In this document: positions 24,950 to 35,581 of the stretch, piece by piece
How the letters are laid out: every line of letters starts with the position of its first letter
Position numbering within the stretch: position 1 is the stretch's first letter
DNA from: Escherichia phage vB_EcoS-95
Sequence record: NC_048132.1
Strand: one strand, 5' to 3'
DNA: 50,910 bases
Position numbers and translations under genes: made by a program
The notes under the pieces: generated by a model
The model's database searches: none
Told to the model about the DNA's origin: nothing
What the model saw: the letters and a program-made list of their open reading frames with translations, nothing else

Positions 24950-25477
24950 ATGGCTAAAAATGTTGAGCCTGCTGTAAAGGCATTAAATTTCAAAGAGTTA
25001 TACAATAAAACTTATGGCGATATTGTTACGCTGAACAACCGCCACAAGTACACGCCGGAACAGGTTTTTGATATGGCGATCCGCTATTTCACGTGGGCAG
25101 AAGAGAATCACATCCAGGCGGCTGAAACTGCTTCCTTTCAGGGTGACGTGTACGAGAGCAGAGTTTACAAGCCTCGCGTTTTCACGGTAAACGGATTCAG
25201 CTTGTATCTCGGCGTGACTGAGGCTGCCGTAAGCAAATGGCGTAAAGAGCCTGGATTCTGCGATGTGATGGAGTTTGTTGATAAAGTAATTTACGAGCAA
25301 AAATTCCAGCTTGCGGCAAATAACATGATTAACGCTGGATTTATCGGTAAAGAGATCGGAGTAGAGAAGCCAGCAACAGTGAGCGTTGAAGCGAGCGCGG
25401 CAGCTAATGCAAGCATTGACGCAGTAACTGCCGATGAGGTGAAAGAGGCTGTGATTGATATTCTGGAGCAACTTTAA
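24950..25477 (+). CDS. Terminase small subunit
   Basis: Position upstream of TerL; HTH-like FTVNGFSLYLGVTEAAVSKW; start at MAKNVEP with RBS AAGGAGG. Confidence 0.6.
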   Translation: MAKNVEPAVKALNFKELYNKTYGDIVTLNNRHKYTPEQVFDMAIRYFTWAEENHIQAAETASFQGDVYESRVYKPRVFTVNGFSLYLGVTEAAVSKWRKEPGFCDVMEFVDKVIYEQKFQLAANNMINAGFIGKEIGVEKPATVSVEASAAANASIDAVTADEVKEAVIDILEQL

Positions 25478-27045
25478 TGATCATATGGGAAGATTTGACG
25501 GCGGCGCAAAAGCGAGCCATTAAAGAAATCAGTGAGCATTCATTCGAAAAGATGATCAGAATCTGGTTCCAATTATTGCAGGGGCAAAAATTCCAGAGCA
25601 ACTGGCATTTTAGCTTATTGTGCAGTGAGGTAGAGAAGATCATCAATGGAGAGTCGCAGAATGTTATTTTCAACATTACGCCAGGTAGCGGTAAGACTGA
25701 GATTTTCTCAATCCACATGTCACCCTACGCGTCATTGAAAAGCCGGAAGGTGAGAAATCTTAACCTTTCGTTTAGTGATGGACTTGTCCAGCAAAACAGC
25801 AACCGGATAAAGGAGATTATTGGTTCTCCTGAGTGGCAAGAGCTATGGCCTGGAAAACTGGCAAAGGCGAGCGCTAAAGATCTGATAGTCACCGAAGGCG
25901 GCAAGGTTAAATTGCAGGTTAACTCACGTTCTATTGGCGGCCAGGTAACAGGTTTGCGTGGCGGCTATATGGATGATGGTTTTACTGGTATGCTGGTTCT
26001 TGACGATCCAGACAAGCCGGATGATATGCTTTCTAAGGTCAAGCGTGAGGCTATCCACATGCGGCTAAAAAACACAGTGCGATCGCGTCGAATGAAAGAC
26101 ACCACGCCGATTGTTATGGTGCAACAGCGACTACACGTTAATGATTCCACCTGGTTTATGCTTAATGGCGGGATGGGTGGTATTGAGTTTAAAGTTGTGA
26201 GCATTCCGGCGCTGGTTACGAAAGAATACCGCGAAACACTTCCTGATTGGTTGAAGCCTGAATTTGATCGTGATGTTCTGTCAAGTAAGCCAGTGATGAT
26301 AGATGGCGTTGCTCATTATTCATTTTGGCCTGCGAAGGAAAGCGCGGAGGAGTTGCTTGCATTGCGCAATGCAGATCCTTACACGTTCGCCAGCCAATAC
26401 CAACAGCAACCAATCGCGCTTGGCGGCAACGTGTTTAAAACAGAGTGGTTCCAGTATTACGGCAGCGGCGAAAAATGCGCACTACCAAAACCGGATCGCT
26501 TTGAATACACATTTATTACTGGAGATACCGCGCAGAAGGCCGGAGAGCTTAACGACTATTCAGTTTTTTGTTATTGGGGGATGTATAAGAATCGCGTTTA
26601 CTTCATTGATGGCATTCGCGGAAAGTGGGAAGCGCCGGATCTTGAATTAAATTTTATTGCCTTCGTTAACCAGTGCTGGAAGCGCAATAAGGAGTGTGGC
26701 AGCTTGCGACGTATCCACATTGAGGATAAGGCCAGCGGAACTGGTTTGATTCAGGGGGCCAAAAAGAAGATCCCGATTGATATAAATCCCGTTCAGCGAA
26801 GCAACGACAAGGTAACGCGAGCAATGGACGCCGCGCCAGTGATGAGGGCCGGACGTGTGGCACTGCCAGAAAATCACCCCATGCTGCCTGAGATACTGGC
26901 AGAGGTTGCAGCATTCACTTTTGATGATTCTCATCCCCATGATGATATTGTCGATAATATAGTTGATGCTGTTAACGTAGAAATGAATTTGGCAGATGAT
27001 CCGGTAGCAAGGATGAAAAAGCTGGCAGGTCTACGCAATAAATAG
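25477..27045 (+). CDS. Terminase large subunit
   Basis: Walker A-like ITPGSGKTE, Walker B MLVLDDPD; 522 aa between TerS and portal. Confidence 0.75.
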   Translation: MIIWEDLTAAQKRAIKEISEHSFEKMIRIWFQLLQGQKFQSNWHFSLLCSEVEKIINGESQNVIFNITPGSGKTEIFSIHMSPYASLKSRKVRNLNLSFSDGLVQQNSNRIKEIIGSPEWQELWPGKLAKASAKDLIVTEGGKVKLQVNSRSIGGQVTGLRGGYMDDGFTGMLVLDDPDKPDDMLSKVKREAIHMRLKNTVRSRRMKDTTPIVMVQQRLHVNDSTWFMLNGGMGGIEFKVVSIPALVTKEYRETLPDWLKPEFDRDVLSSKPVMIDGVAHYSFWPAKESAEELLALRNADPYTFASQYQQQPIALGGNVFKTEWFQYYGSGEKCALPKPDRFEYTFITGDTAQKAGELNDYSVFCYWGMYKNRVYFIDGIRGKWEAPDLELNFIAFVNQCWKRNKECGSLRRIHIEDKASGTGLIQGAKKKIPIDINPVQRSNDKVTRAMDAAPVMRAGRVALPENHPMLPEILAEVAAFTFDDSHPHDDIVDNIVDAVNVEMNLADDPVARMKKLAGLRNK

Positions 27046-29170: not shown

Positions 29171-30286
29171 ATGAAGGCAAAACAAAGATTTGATAGCGCC
29201 AAAGTAAAGGCGCACTTTGATGATAACGGGTTTTTAGTTGATCGCCCTATCGTGGCGCGAATTGGTTTACAAGTCTATCAGACTCCTTTCGGTGAGCGCA
29301 GAGAATTTCGTCCTGCGTCCGAAGTATTCAAGGCCGACTCACTCGCCACCTTCGCAGGGAAGCCAGTCACGGTTGGTCACGTTACGGTAACTCCAGAAAA
29401 CGCCGAAAAGGTTGTGGTTGGTTCTTGTGCTGGTGCTGGTGTGCCGAACGGGATCGGCGTAGAGGTTCCGTTAAGCATTTACTCAAAACGAGCAATCGAA
29501 AGCGCGAAGAAGCGAGACACGGCGGAGATTTCAGTTGGTTATACATCGGTTGATATTGATAAACCAGGCTGGGGCAATAATAAAACTGGTGAGTACGTTT
29601 TCGATGAGGATGTTAGCGAAGACTGGAAACCTGATTCTCCTGATTGGGTTAAGTTTGATGCAATCCAGACTGAAATCAAGGTAAACCACATCGCGTTAGT
29701 TTTCCGAGGTCGAGCTGGCATTGCAAAATTAAACCTTGATAGCCAGCAAGATTTTCCGTATAGTGACGATGTTATTAACAACAAAGAGGATCAAATCATG
29801 ACTGTAAAAATTAAACTGGATGGCGCTGTAGAGTTTGACGTGCCAAAAGCAGTTGCGGATCACATTGAATCACTGAAAGCTGATGCCAAAGCACAGAAAG
29901 AAAAGGCGGACGGCCTGGAAGCTGAGCGAGATGCACTGCAAACCAAAGTAGATGGCATTCAGGATCAGATTGATGCCGCAGTCAAGAAAGCCAAAGAAGA
30001 TGCCGCGCAACATGCTCAATTAGTAGCAGACGCTAAAGAGTTAGGCATCAAGTGCGACGGCCTGGATGCGAAAGCAATCAAGGTTGCATACATCAAAGAA
30101 GTTATGGGCAATGACGTTTCCGATAAAACTGATGCCTATATCGAAACAGCTTTCGACATCGCCAAAAACTCTGATAAAATGGCGGCACAGCGTAAGAGCA
30201 TTAAAGGTGACTCTTTCGCTAATGAAAAACAGGATGACGCAGGTTCTAAGCTGAATCCTAACGCTCGTTTTGAGAAACTGAAATAA
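29171..30286 (+). CDS. Putative scaffolding / prohead core protein
   Basis: Position between portal and capsid genes; coiled-coil-like charged region (KADGLEAERDALQTKVDGIQDQIDAAVKKAKEDAAQHA). Confidence 0.35.
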   Translation: MKAKQRFDSAKVKAHFDDNGFLVDRPIVARIGLQVYQTPFGERREFRPASEVFKADSLATFAGKPVTVGHVTVTPENAEKVVVGSCAGAGVPNGIGVEVPLSIYSKRAIESAKKRDTAEISVGYTSVDIDKPGWGNNKTGEYVFDEDVSEDWKPDSPDWVKFDAIQTEIKVNHIALVFRGRAGIAKLNLDSQQDFPYSDDVINNKEDQIMTVKIKLDGAVEFDVPKAVADHIESLKADAKAQKEKADGLEAERDALQTKVDGIQDQIDAAVKKAKEDAAQHAQLVADAKELGIKCDGLDAKAIKVAYIKEVMGNDVSDKTDAYIETAFDIAKNSDKMAAQRKSIKGDSFANEKQDDAGSKLNPNARFEKLK

Positions 30287-30298
30287 GGAGTAATTAAA

Positions 30299-30778
30299 AT
30301 GGCTAAAATTGGAGCAAGTTATTTTGACACTATGGCGATCGCACTACCTGGCATGGTTGCCGACACTTCTAAATACAACATTGACGGCGCTTGCGTCGTT
30401 AGTGAAGGTGGGGAAATTCTTGTTGGTACTGCCGTGCAGGTTGTCGCAGTGCAAGCGGTTGAAGGTCATAAACTTATTAAGCGCATGGAAGCAGAAAAAT
30501 ATCCTTACGGTGTGGCAATTCGCTCTCACTGGCAAACTGTTAACTCTCAAGGACAGATGGTTTATGAAGAAGGAAGCGCAATCAACGTAATGACATCTGG
30601 AAGAGTTTGGATTCGTTCAAAGTCCAGCGCAGCACCAGTCTTCGGCACTGCCGTTAAACTTGATGTTGATGGTCATGAAAAATCAGACGGCGCAATCACT
30701 ACTAACTGGACATACGCTGGCGGATTTGTCAAATATAAAGATATTAATCTTGTAGAAGTTCAGTTGCAGCAACTGTAA
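30299..30778 (+). CDS. Capsid decoration-like protein (paralog A)
   Basis: Shares N-terminal domain with 30839-31852 (YNIDGACV...GRVW...AGGFVK...EVQ). Confidence 0.4.
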   Translation: MAKIGASYFDTMAIALPGMVADTSKYNIDGACVVSEGGEILVGTAVQVVAVQAVEGHKLIKRMEAEKYPYGVAIRSHWQTVNSQGQMVYEEGSAINVMTSGRVWIRSKSSAAPVFGTAVKLDVDGHEKSDGAITTNWTYAGGFVKYKDINLVEVQLQQL

Positions 30779-30794
30779 TTAGAGTTTAATATTG

Positions 30795-30824
30795 GGACCA
30801 TCCAAAAGGATGGTCCTTTTTTTT
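30795..30824 (+). terminator. Rho-independent terminator
   Basis: GGACCATCC-AAAA-GGATGGTCC followed by T8. Confidence 0.6.
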
Positions 30825-30838
30825 ATGGAGAAATTATT

Positions 30839-31852
30839 ATGGCTTATGAAAATTTAATGATGCACTATGCATGTCCTGGCAATCTCTCTGATACTTCAAC
30901 ATATAACATTGATGGCGCTTGTGTTGCTCAAGGTGATATTAAGTTTGGATCAGCGGTTCGGGTTGTCGGAATAGTGGATGGAATGAGGGTTGTGACGGCG
31001 CTTTCTGATGGTGAAACTCCTTACGGCATCGCTTTTCGTTCCCAATATGAGCACCTGAGCGGTAAAATTCTCGACGGAGAGGTGTGTAACGTCGTTTCTC
31101 ACGGTCGGGTGTGGGCGCTTACTTCTCTTAGTGAAGCCCCGAAATCATTCTCAAAACTAAGAATCGGTGTTGGAGGAGTAGTAACTGGCGTAGATGATTA
31201 TGTTGGTTGGACCTTTGCTGGTGGCTTTGTTAAGCACGAAGACGGTCACATTATTGAGGTTCAGGTGAAGCAAAATGCTCTAATCGTTCCACCCCCTCCG
31301 CCTCCTGTGGTGCTGGTAGAGTCTGCAACAATTAACACTGACAAGGAGAGTCCGCAGCCAAACAATGCTCCTGTAAAATGCAGTATCACAGTAGAGCCTG
31401 GCAACGCCACCGATAAAACTGGTGTTTGGTCTGTTGATGCTGTAAACATTGCGACTATTGATGCCGATACAGGTATTCTAACTCCTGTTGGTAGTGATGC
31501 ATTCGGTAGTGTAAACGTAAATTGGACTGCTAACGATGGAAGCAAGACTAAGGCCACGATTGTTTATCAATTCGAAAAAGCTGTTGTTAGCGTCGCTAGT
31601 GCAACCGTAAGCCTTGAGAAAAATTCTGCAATTGTTGGTGAAGCCGTTCAGGCGAGCGTTGTCGTTGCTCCAGAAGGTGCTACAAATAAATCCGGTTCTT
31701 GGTCTTTGTCAAGTGGTGATTTTGCATCTGTAGATCCTGGTACTGGACTAGTAACTACTATCGCCGCTGGCGAGGTTGATGTTATCTGGACCGCTGCTGA
31801 TGGTTCTGGCGTTAAAGGTCAGCAAAGACTAACCATCACCGATCCTGAATAA
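30839..31852 (+). CDS. Capsid decoration-like protein (paralog B) with Pro linker and two Ig-like (Big_2-type) domains
   Basis: N-terminal paralogy to 30299-30778; PPPPPPVV linker; two repeats of Ig-like pattern (ATID..TG.LT..G.......V.WTA.DGS). Confidence 0.45.
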   Translation: MAYENLMMHYACPGNLSDTSTYNIDGACVAQGDIKFGSAVRVVGIVDGMRVVTALSDGETPYGIAFRSQYEHLSGKILDGEVCNVVSHGRVWALTSLSEAPKSFSKLRIGVGGVVTGVDDYVGWTFAGGFVKHEDGHIIEVQVKQNALIVPPPPPPVVLVESATINTDKESPQPNNAPVKCSITVEPGNATDKTGVWSVDAVNIATIDADTGILTPVGSDAFGSVNVNWTANDGSKTKATIVYQFEKAVVSVASATVSLEKNSAIVGEAVQASVVVAPEGATNKSGSWSLSSGDFASVDPGTGLVTTIAAGEVDVIWTAADGSGVKGQQRLTITDPE

Positions 31853-31869
31853 CATAAAAACGCTTTGAC

Positions 31870-31892
31870 GCTTTAACAAAAAGTGCTATCAT
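31870..31892 (+). promoter_or_regulatory. Reverse-orientation box giving an extended -10 (TGCTATCAT) with upstream TTGACG, ahead of the major capsid gene
   Basis: TTGACG-16 bp-TATCAT with TG at -15/-14; sequence is the reverse complement of the early box. Confidence 0.45.
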
Positions 31893-31933
31893 CTAGGCCG
31901 TTACATTTAACGGCCTTTTATGGAGGAAACAAA

Positions 31934-32905
31934 ATGGCTAAAAAATATGATGAATTAGATGCTACTATTGTAGCAAATCATTTGCAGATTCAGGGTGTTA
32001 AGTCCGACGCTTCTGATATGGGTATTTGGACCGCTCAAGAGCTACACAAGATCCGCTCTAACGCATACGAGAAAGAGTATCCGGCAGGTTCCGCGCTTCG
32101 CGTATTCCCTGTAACAAACGAGCTTTCTGATACTGACAAGACTTTCGAATATCAGACTTTTGATAAGGTTGGCTACGCGAAAATTATCGCCGACTACACC
32201 GATGATCTGCCGACTGTGGACGCGTTGATGACTTCTGAGTTTGGCAAAGTGTTCCGCCTGGGTAACGCTTATCTGATCTCCATTGATGAGATTAAAGCAG
32301 GTCAGCGAACTGGCAAGAGCCTGTCAACTCGCAAGGCTAACGCTGCGCAAAATGCACATGATCAGTTGATTAACTTCCTGGTGTTCAAGGGTTCCAAGCC
32401 TCACAAGATCGTTTCCGTTTTCGATCATCCTAACCTTACGAAAATTGTTTCTAAAGGCTGGATGAGCAAGGATGGAAACACCAAGTTCCCTGATGTGGCA
32501 AGCGATGAACTGGAGGCTGCAATCGAGACTATCGAGGAAGTAACTAAAGGTCAGCACCGCGCGACTAACATCCTGATCCCGCCGTCCATGCGCAAAGTCC
32601 TGACGGTTCGAATGGAAAATACCACTGAAAGTTATCTGGAATACTTCCAGAAGCAAAACGGCGGTATCACTATCGACTCTATCGCAGAGCTTGAGGATAT
32701 TGACGGCAAAGGTACGAAAGGTTGCTTGGTTTACGAAAAAGATCCAATGAACATGAGCATTGAGATTCCAGAAGCGTTTAACATGCTTCCGGCGCAGCCA
32801 AAAGACCTTCACTTCAAGGTTCCTTGCACTTCCAAGTGTACTGGCCTTACGATTTACCGTCCGTTTACGATGGTGCTTATTACTGGCTTGAAAAAGGCTG
32901 TGTAA
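31934..32905 (+). CDS. Major capsid protein
   Basis: 323-aa ORF in capsid position with strong RBS GGAGGAAACAAAATG; followed by a strong terminator. Confidence 0.6.
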   Translation: MAKKYDELDATIVANHLQIQGVKSDASDMGIWTAQELHKIRSNAYEKEYPAGSALRVFPVTNELSDTDKTFEYQTFDKVGYAKIIADYTDDLPTVDALMTSEFGKVFRLGNAYLISIDEIKAGQRTGKSLSTRKANAAQNAHDQLINFLVFKGSKPHKIVSVFDHPNLTKIVSKGWMSKDGNTKFPDVASDELEAAIETIEEVTKGQHRATNILIPPSMRKVLTVRMENTTESYLEYFQKQNGGITIDSIAELEDIDGKGTKGCLVYEKDPMNMSIEIPEAFNMLPAQPKDLHFKVPCTSKCTGLTIYRPFTMVLITGLKKAV

Positions 32906-32916
32906 TTAGATAACAT

Positions 32917-32947
32917 GGGGAGCCTTAATGGTTCCCCTTTTTTTATT
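32917..32947 (+). terminator. Rho-independent terminator after the major capsid gene
   Basis: GGGGA..TCCCC hairpin followed by T-run. Confidence 0.55.
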
Positions 32948-32962
32948 TATGGAGCACACAAA

Positions 32963-33229
32963 ATGAGCAAAAATTTAAAACTTAAAGTAACTGGCGTTTG
33001 CATGATTGTTATGGACGGCAAGCGTTATCATCCTGGTGATGAAATTGAAATTGAATCCGATCGCATTAATGACTCCGCAATTGAATACCTGATCGCTCGC
33101 GGAGATGTGGAAGTTAAAGACAATTCCGAAATTAACGAGCAAATCAAGGAGAAAGCTGAGAAGAAGCGCAAAAAAGATCCTACCGAGGGTAAGAGCCGCA
33201 AAGAACTAGAGGATGGCGGCGAATATTAA
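32963..33229 (+). CDS. Hypothetical structural protein
   Basis: 88-aa ORF, start at MSKNLKLK. Confidence 0.35.
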
Positions 33230-34892: not shown

Positions 34893-35555
34893 ATGCACTT
34901 GCCTAATGGTTCTCAAATTTTCATCGGCGTTAATATGGGTGATCCAATTCAAGCTACTGATATTTCAAACGCTAAAGATCCGGTTTTTACTGTTAGTAAT
35001 TCACAGCAGGTCAAAAAAGGTGCTTATGTTCTGATTGAAACGTCTTCCTGGGGTAAACTGGTTAGTCGTGTGTTGCGGGTAAAAGAAGTATCTGATAACG
35101 CAAGCGTAACTCTTGAAGGTGTAGACACAACCGATCAAAACGTATTTCCGGCTGGTTCTAATGCAGCAACTTTCCGAGAGGTGAAATCTTGGGTAGAGGT
35201 TCCTTGCGTACAGGATCTTGCGCAGGACGGCGGCGAGCAACAGTATTACACTTATCAGTGTTTGGCTGATGACCAGGAGCAGCAGTTACCGACTTACAAG
35301 AGCGCAGTTTCTCTTACCTACACTTTCGCGCATGAATATGATAACCCGATTTATCCGATCTTGCGCAAGGCTGAGGAATCCGGCGACGTAACCGCTTTGC
35401 GTATGTACGTTCCGAAAGCTAAAGAGATGCGTTGCTGGGCTGGCGTATTGTCTTTTAATGACATTCCGCAAACCACTATGAACGAAATGGAAACTGTTTC
35501 CCTTTCCGTATCTCTGAAAGGTCGATTTACGTTCTTACCTTCCGACGTTAAGTAA
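34893..35555 (+). CDS. Major tail protein
   Basis: 220-aa ORF upstream of the G/GT chaperone and tape measure (lambda V position); RBS AGGAGG. Confidence 0.5.
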   Translation: MHLPNGSQIFIGVNMGDPIQATDISNAKDPVFTVSNSQQVKKGAYVLIETSSWGKLVSRVLRVKEVSDNASVTLEGVDTTDQNVFPAGSNAATFREVKSWVEVPCVQDLAQDGGEQQYYTYQCLADDQEQQLPTYKSAVSLTYTFAHEYDNPIYPILRKAEESGDVTALRMYVPKAKEMRCWAGVLSFNDIPQTTMNEMETVSLSVSLKGRFTFLPSDVK

Positions 35556-35560
35556 AACAA

Positions 35561-35581
35561 GGGGCGTTGCGCCCCTTTTTT
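35561..35581 (+). terminator. Rho-independent terminator after the major tail gene
   Basis: GGGGC-GTTGC-GCCCC followed by TTTTTT. Confidence 0.6.

Follow-up and report, generated by a model that had tools for sequence, protein, structure and literature searches.

The window analysed here is the whole 50,910-nucleotide sequence of Escherichia phage vB_EcoS-95 (NC_048132.1), essentially the complete ~51 kb genome of a T1-like siphophage that its relatives place in Drexlerviridae, Tempevirinae, Warwickvirus. Our subject is a pair of tandem genes in its head module, here called A and B, which very probably encode two capsid cement (decoration) proteins of the kind that occur as a pair in phage T1. 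The module runs in the order large terminase (25477-27045), portal, Mu-F-like head morphogenesis protein, prohead protease/scaffold, A, B and major capsid protein (MCP), with B adjoining the major capsid gene (Table 1). Shine-Dalgarno sequences precede both genes (AAGGAG at 30285-30290 for A, GGAG at 30827-30830 for B), and the 3.7 kb around them are 97-99% identical to Escherichia phages NorthRox, swan01, mar001J1, Sip, Kalemo and tinuso. A preliminary description, made from the letters of the sequence, had read the two open reading frames as decoration-like paralogs separated by a terminator and sharing an N-terminal domain of ~150 amino acids, the second extended by a PPPPPPVV stretch and two Big_2-type immunoglobulin-like (Ig-like) repeats. 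Both frames are present on the plus strand at exactly the coordinates it gave, and every one of these features was recovered by the evidence set out below.

Table 1. Features of the A/B region and its flanking genes in the vB_EcoS-95 genome (positions refer to the window).
Feature	Coordinates	Strand	Evidence
Prohead protease with coiled-coil scaffold-like C-terminus, T1 gp50 ortholog	29171-30286	+	Pfam DUF2213, 6.9e-25; PHROG 530 head maturation protease, 6e-110
Cement protein A, 159 aa, beta-tulip decoration protein, ortholog of T1 gp49 / FCWL1 'cement protein II'	30299-30778	+	Phage_cement and PDB matches
Mosaic cassette lacking a nucleotide match to most Warwickviruses, between flanks 96-97% identical	30397-31847	+	blastn
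Intrinsic terminator between A and B: 10-bp stem GGGACCATCC/GGATGGTCCT, 4-nt loop, T8 run	30794-30825	+	Folding free energy (dG) -18.1 kcal/mol, z -3.0
Cement protein B, 337 aa: beta-tulip domain, P6 linker, Ig1, Ig2; ortholog of T1 gp48 / FCWL1 gp29	30839-31852	+	PDB, Pfam, AlphaFold2
Beta-tulip capsid-binding and trimerisation domain of B, residues 1-148	30839-31282	+	86% to T1 gp48 N-domain, 38% to A, Foldseek
Six proline codons, P151-P156, in linker IVPPPPPPVVLV (IVPPPPPPVV stretch)	31289-31306	+	Read from sequence
Ig-like domain 1 (Big_2), B residues ~161-247, equivalent to the single Ig of T1 gp48	31319-31579	+	62% to T1 Ig; PHROG 1280; AlphaFold2
Ig-like domain 2 (Big_2), B residues 248-337, extra distal domain with no T1 counterpart	31580-31849	+	Pfam, gap in T1 alignment
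Promoter-like site 5' of the MCP gene: TTGACG, 16 nt, TGcTATCAT	31865-31892	+	10/12 consensus matches, extended -10 TG
Hairpin and U-run after B, directly 3' of the promoter-like site	31896-31919	+	Terminator annotation in vB_Eco_Sip
HK97-fold major capsid protein (MCP), T1 gp47 ortholog	31934-32905	+	Pfam Major_capside, 6.6e-54; PHROG 264, 1e-99

By BLASTP, A and B are paralogs, aligning over 147 amino acids with 38% identity and 63% positives at a level far past chance (E=6e-28 for the single comparison). Profile searches place both in Pfam family PF22758, Phage_cement ('Structural cement protein (E217 gp24/Pam3 gp6)'), with 98.5 bits (5e-28) for A and 59.4 bits for B at a gathering cut-off of 27 bits; a search of NCBIfam gave no meaningful match for either protein. 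The C-terminal part of B matches PF02368 (Big_2) at 52.6 bits in two stretches, the better of which covers residues 252-324 (cut-off 22.8 bits), and the Ig domain of PHROG 1280 at residues 168-240. The AlphaFold2 model of B, built with 34 homologs (predicted local distance difference test, pLDDT, 89.3; predicted template modelling score, pTM, 0.46), begins with a beta domain, followed by a linker of low confidence and by two beta-sandwiches at ~162-246 and ~254-334 in which pLDDT is mostly 90-97. The low pTM fits a beads-on-a-string protein, in which the orientation of one domain to the next would not be fixed.

Searches of the PDB by sequence tie the pair to proteins whose structures have been solved in virions. 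A matches the cement protein of phages T1 and FCWL1 (9KZJ, 9KMG_a) over its full length at E=1.6e-74, and residues 1-247 of B match T1 gp48 (9KZJ chain H, 255 aa) at E=1.3e-129 and FCWL1 gp29 (9KMH) at E=5e-125. Structure comparison agrees: the top Foldseek matches of the B model are 9kzj_H and 9kmh_ak (target-normalised template modelling score, TM, 0.89), superposition on the solved T1 gp48/gp49 and FCWL1 chains gives target-normalised TM of 0.78-0.89, and the N-terminal domain, which superposes on 9kzj_H at 0.89, is also matched by 9kmg_a and Pam3 8hdt_G. Matches to the Ig region of the model include T5 pb6, Big_2-CBM56, LigA and intimin. In tblastn against the T1 genome, A is 75% identical to ST49 and 37.5% to ST48, while B is 78% identical to ST48 (residues 1-246) and 42% to ST49; the order of genes in T1 (protease, A, terminator, B, MCP) is the same. 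Because of this best-match pattern and the shared synteny, we consider A to be the ortholog of gp49 and B that of gp48, and the beta-tulip fold of A is assigned from its identity to the solved gp49. GenBank names this pair 'capsid decoration protein' and 'IgG-domain-containing decoration protein' in T1 (AY216660) and FCWL1.

The pair thus shares gene order and fold with gp49 and gp48, although the T1 protein ends 8 residues after its only Ig domain whereas B continues into a second, and the rest of the vB_EcoS-95 head module is only 48-76% identical to that of T1. Within B, identity to T1 varies by part: it is 86% in the beta-tulip domain, 100% in the linker and 62% in Ig1. A conserved anchor carrying a less conserved, exposed Ig1 fits an outward-facing module that would evolve faster. 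The linker is kept in T1-type homologs and missing in FritzSarasin-type homologs, the latter named for a Warwickvirus considered further below.

Cryo-electron microscopy of T1 (PMC11945409; Viruses 2025;17:351; PDB 9KZJ) has shown that gp49 and the N-terminal domain of gp48 adopt a beta-tulip fold, and that the trimers on the T=7 head, located at icosahedral and quasi-threefold axes, are of two kinds: 80 consist of gp49 alone, and 60 combine one gp48 with two gp49. The N-terminus of gp49 inserts into the shell and gp48 sits outside only; the C-terminal Ig part of gp48 appears as weak, protruding density which the authors suggest 'may assist adsorption' (PMC11945409). By homology to T1, the beta-tulip domains of A and B would form trimers outside the mature T=7 HK97-fold capsid, the lattice of which would be built by the MCP encoded just downstream, and would clamp three capsomers at each of 140 icosahedral and quasi-threefold sites. 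Most trimers would be A3 (80 per head), with B replacing one A in the other 60, which by analogy would amount to ~360 copies of A and ~60 of B per virion. B would be anchored via its beta-tulip domain, with a stiff hexaproline stalk and two Big_2 Ig domains forming a flexible surface appendage that would most likely let the phage adhere weakly and reversibly to surfaces rich in carbohydrate, for example the host envelope or mucus, a role that is plausible and in line with the suggestion of the T1 authors. Of the earlier suggestion of two surface proteins with different display, the decoration role stands and independence does not, as the T1 paralogs co-assemble, with gp48 in 60 of the 140 trimers.

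Were A and B nevertheless to decorate the head independently, B would occupy sites of its own, in the manner of T4 Hoc and T5 pb10. Those two Ig-bearing decoration proteins bind as monomers at hexamer centres, and they resemble B in that they display dispensable-looking Ig-like domains on the head surface, for which weak adherence has been proposed. The resemblance is functional only: Hoc and pb10 have their own anchors at hexamer centres, whereas the anchor of B is a paralog of the A beta-tulip and would lie inside a trimer, and searches of Pfam and PHROG gave no match in A or B to the Hoc and pb10 families. The T1 authors, who cite the T5 Ig decoration, place the B ortholog in a trimer with two gp49 (PMC11945409). 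Given the cement-paralog anchor and the T1 trimer, we rejected independent, Hoc-like decoration, which we regard as very unlikely, and retain the mixed trimers of the T1 type.

Phage FCWL1 encodes the same two proteins, the sequence of its cement protein being that of T1 gp49, and its gp29 carries one Ig domain. Its structures, 9KMG and 9KMH, are reportedly the work of Cai et al. (Structure 2025;33:663, as cited in PMC13033339). Of these entries, the portal-vertex composite 9KMH contains gp29, as five chains, and the icosahedral capsid entry 9KMG lacks it; because of this, the copy number and location of gp29-type proteins may differ from the 60 copies of T1, and 9KMH and 9KZJ may disagree on where the Ig-bearing protein sits. 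This weighs against a T1-type arrangement in vB_EcoS-95, as do three other points: virion evidence for A and B comes solely via homologs at 75-86% identity, we know of no binding partner for any gp48-type Ig domain, and the efficiency of the terminator and activity of the promoter discussed below are read from consensus scans only.

Taken at face value, the FCWL1 deposits would make B a vertex- or portal-vertex-specific protein of few copies (five at the portal, for example), with its Ig domains acting near the neck. However, gp48 is present in the asymmetric unit of the icosahedral T1 entry 9KZJ, and 60 heterotrimers were counted there (PMC11945409); an icosahedrally averaged map would not reveal a protein found only at the portal. 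Furthermore, five copies at the portal vertex are one twelfth of 60; the five chains of 9KMH may be just the portal-vertex share of 60 copies, and the deposits need not conflict. A role of B as a vertex- or portal-vertex-specific protein of few copies therefore seems improbable to us, and we favour its distribution over the capsid within heterotrimers.

The shared domain might also have been a scaffold, a protease or another assembly factor absent from the virion, a notion encouraged only by inconsistent GenBank labels ('SbcC-like scaffolding protein', 'capsid and scaffold'). Instead, protease and scaffold functions map to the gene upstream of A, the fold of the shared domain is a beta-tulip, and the models of the mature T1 and FCWL1 virions include orthologs of both proteins. 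The two doubts raised in the preliminary description, that neither protein would be present in virions or that the shared domain would prove to be a scaffold or protease fold, are thus not borne out by the orthologs, and the solved virion structures of the orthologs led us to reject this reading, to which we attach practically no weight. Names given to relatives of A and B in GenBank vary widely, including hypothetical protein, HtjA, putative zonula occludens toxin, SbcC-like scaffolding protein, capsid fiber protein and preneck appendage protein, and decoration-protein names are used only by T1 (AY216660), FCWL1, Sip and a few others.

Beta-tulip cement proteins are found well beyond T1. The PF22758 proteins gp24 of Pseudomonas phage E217 and gp6 of cyanophage Pam3, along with gp53 of Vibrio phage XM1 (PF23982) and TW1 gp56, are trimeric and occupy threefold and quasi-threefold axes, as A and B would. 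E217 has 180 gp24 trimers, all of them homotrimers of one cement protein (PMC10329688), and siphophage Sf11 has likewise been modelled with a single homotrimeric decoration protein. Unlike the A/B pair, E217-type systems are without a reported Ig-bearing paralog or heterotrimer. The Drexlerviridae-like Klebsiella phage KP36 (Webervirus; L006, 2459-2980) and phage OzMSK (L007, 2510-3019) each carry a single cement gene between protease and MCP, without an Ig paralog. Because these two have a single cement gene, the A/B pair is a lineage-specific elaboration, and not every member of the family has the Ig-bearing paralog.

The second Ig domain is the unusual part of B, and it is rare among relatives. 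The nucleotide alignment of B with T1 ends at 31568 and restarts at 31846, such that ~277 nt encoding Ig2 (31569-31845) replace the 8-residue tail of the T1 protein. Among the homologs in a collection of 5.8 billion proteins, nearly all cement proteins with Ig domains are 243-280 aa long and have one such domain; two-Ig forms (336-346 aa) make up only a few clusters, comprising the 99%-identical proteins of NorthRox and Sip together with P0003, P0004, P0032 and P0033 at 43-76% identity. The best full-length two-Ig homologs after the near-identical ones are 73-76% identical to B, and one-Ig forms reach 79% over the common part.

Ig1 and Ig2 are 39-43% identical to one another (43% at E=2e-16). 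In a mafft alignment, Ig2 shares 41% identity with the C-terminal Ig domain of a T5-like pb6 and 44% with a small Ig protein of a Dhillonvirus, and local tblastn matches to proteins of these types reach 46-49%. Outside the two-Ig cement proteins, the C-terminal Big_2 Ig of T5 pb6 (PDB 5NGJ, 7QG9) and the Dhillonvirus Ig domains are the nearest relatives of Ig2, although these belong to tail proteins (those of Dhillonvirus are annotated as major tail proteins) rather than to capsid cement. A neighbour-joining tree groups the Ig2 domains with the tail Ig domains and not with Ig1, but at ~90 residues it is not robust. We rejected the possibility that Ig2 is a recent tandem copy of Ig1, given that the two are only 39-43% identical and Ig2 is about as close to the tail-tube Ig domains; judged by these comparisons a recent duplication is unlikely, and an ancient one is possible given the weak tree.

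Both genes lie largely within a segment that is mosaic among Warwickviruses. In blastn against FritzSarasin, the high-scoring segment pairs stop at 30396, ~33 codons into A, and resume at 31848, in the stop codon of B; the sequence between cannot be aligned at the nucleotide level with the equivalent FritzSarasin segment (L002, 4227-5473). Protein identities to FritzSarasin and most Warwickviruses are 52% for A and 31% for B, and 98.4-99.7% for terminase, portal, MuF, protease and MCP. Judged by these identities, a nearly unchanged capsid lattice accommodates two cement pairs that differ greatly. The vB_EcoS-95 cassette occurs in 12 phage records at a minimum of 96.6% identity, and a closer donor was not found among the 5.8 billion proteins. 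Residues 1-33 of A are 85-88% identical across vB_EcoS-95, T1 and FritzSarasin, as against 46-73% for the rest of the protein. This conserved N-terminus may relate to the shell-inserting N-terminus of T1 gp49, although part of the conservation simply reflects the position of the recombination junction.

Protein identity to T1 is 75-78% for the cassette, much like the 76% of the MCP. Because of this agreement, the vB_EcoS-95 cassette may be the vertically inherited form and the FritzSarasin-type cassette the incomer. A broader proposal would hold that the cement pair is an exchangeable surface cassette under diversifying selection, that its two-Ig form is functional and that Ig2 was drawn from a pool shared with the Ig domains of tail tubes; we offer this tentatively and consider it rather unlikely as a whole. 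If it were true, the two-Ig form would be a functional variant and not the product of neutral drift, the pressures could include a need to adhere to varied substrates or to evade an agent that recognises the outer face of the head, and the cassette could serve as a display scaffold that is natural and swappable.

The terminator between A and B bears on how much of each protein is made. None of 200 shuffled sequences folded as well as the native one, and the element ends 13 nt 5' of the B start codon. In T1 the gap between the two genes also holds a hairpin with a T-run, annotated as a terminator, and in FritzSarasin it holds a hairpin with a T-run and an unrelated stem sequence, so that a terminator-like hairpin is kept in all three cassettes with differing stems. 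That its position is kept despite unrelated stem sequence argues that the element is under selection. As the terminator leaves no room for a promoter and a promoter scan inside gene A predicted no promoter-like site, we infer that B is transcribed by read-through only. Read-through would plausibly hold B well below A, in line with the ratio of 6:1 seen in T1 (~6 A per B). The hexaproline tract could in principle act as a second brake on B synthesis, dependent on elongation factor P, but this is speculation, and the absence of the tract from FritzSarasin-type homologs speaks against it.

A second conserved arrangement lies between B and the MCP gene. The promoter-like site there is near-invariant in vB_EcoS-95, T1 and FritzSarasin, although coding DNA is only ~71% identical to T1, and the KP36 record has a promoter annotated at the equivalent position. 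Because the site is nearly invariant, the MCP gene probably has its own conserved promoter. The hairpin that follows has a T1 counterpart with a different stem. A transcript starting ~5-8 nt past the -10 element would begin within the 5' arm of this hairpin, and it is tempting to speculate that the hairpin might block read-through from upstream yet spare RNA initiated at the promoter.

The genes on either side of the pair are orthologs of T1 head genes. The protease is 62% identical to T1 gp50 and 98.9% to its FritzSarasin counterpart, and the MCP is 76% identical to T1 gp47 and 98.4% to that of FritzSarasin. The MCP contains the motif ASDMGIW, and a longer open reading frame for it begins with GTG at 31883. 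In phage TLS the mature capsid protein was shown by experiment to begin with ASDMGIW (PMC11447400), and for this reason the first ~25 residues of the MCP (~42 if counted from the GTG at 31883) are probably removed by the prohead protease. Just 3' of the MCP stop codon, a strong terminator-like hairpin with a T run (32917-32937) lies within the listed open reading frame 32915-33229; the probable start of the real gene in that frame (DUF7444, PHROG 2716) is the ATG at 32960, in agreement with the annotation of relatives (89 aa). Further downstream, just 3' of the tail tube gene (34893-35555), lies a bidirectional terminator-like hairpin at 35559-35577 (AAGGGGCG...CGCCCCTT); its tail is T-rich on the plus strand and weaker on the minus strand. 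This element is in keeping with the many annotated intergenic terminators of T1. Scans of the whole window (1-50910) found no tRNA gene and no Rfam family match at gathering thresholds; hence no structured RNA accounts for the intergenic hairpins beyond terminator-like elements.

In conclusion, the architecture of this pair and its location in the virion were already known from T1 and FCWL1 in 2025, and near-identical genes were already present in GenBank. What the vB_EcoS-95 genome adds to the T1 study is the second Ig domain, the mosaic cassette, and the conservation of the A/B terminator and of the promoter-like site and hairpin that precede the MCP gene. The practical value lies in a firm annotation for Warwickvirus genes that are mostly named uninformatively or wrongly. 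The natural contrast between one-Ig and two-Ig forms could reveal what capsid Ig domains do, and the occurrence of different cement pairs on nearly the same lattice is relevant to phage display and capsid engineering.

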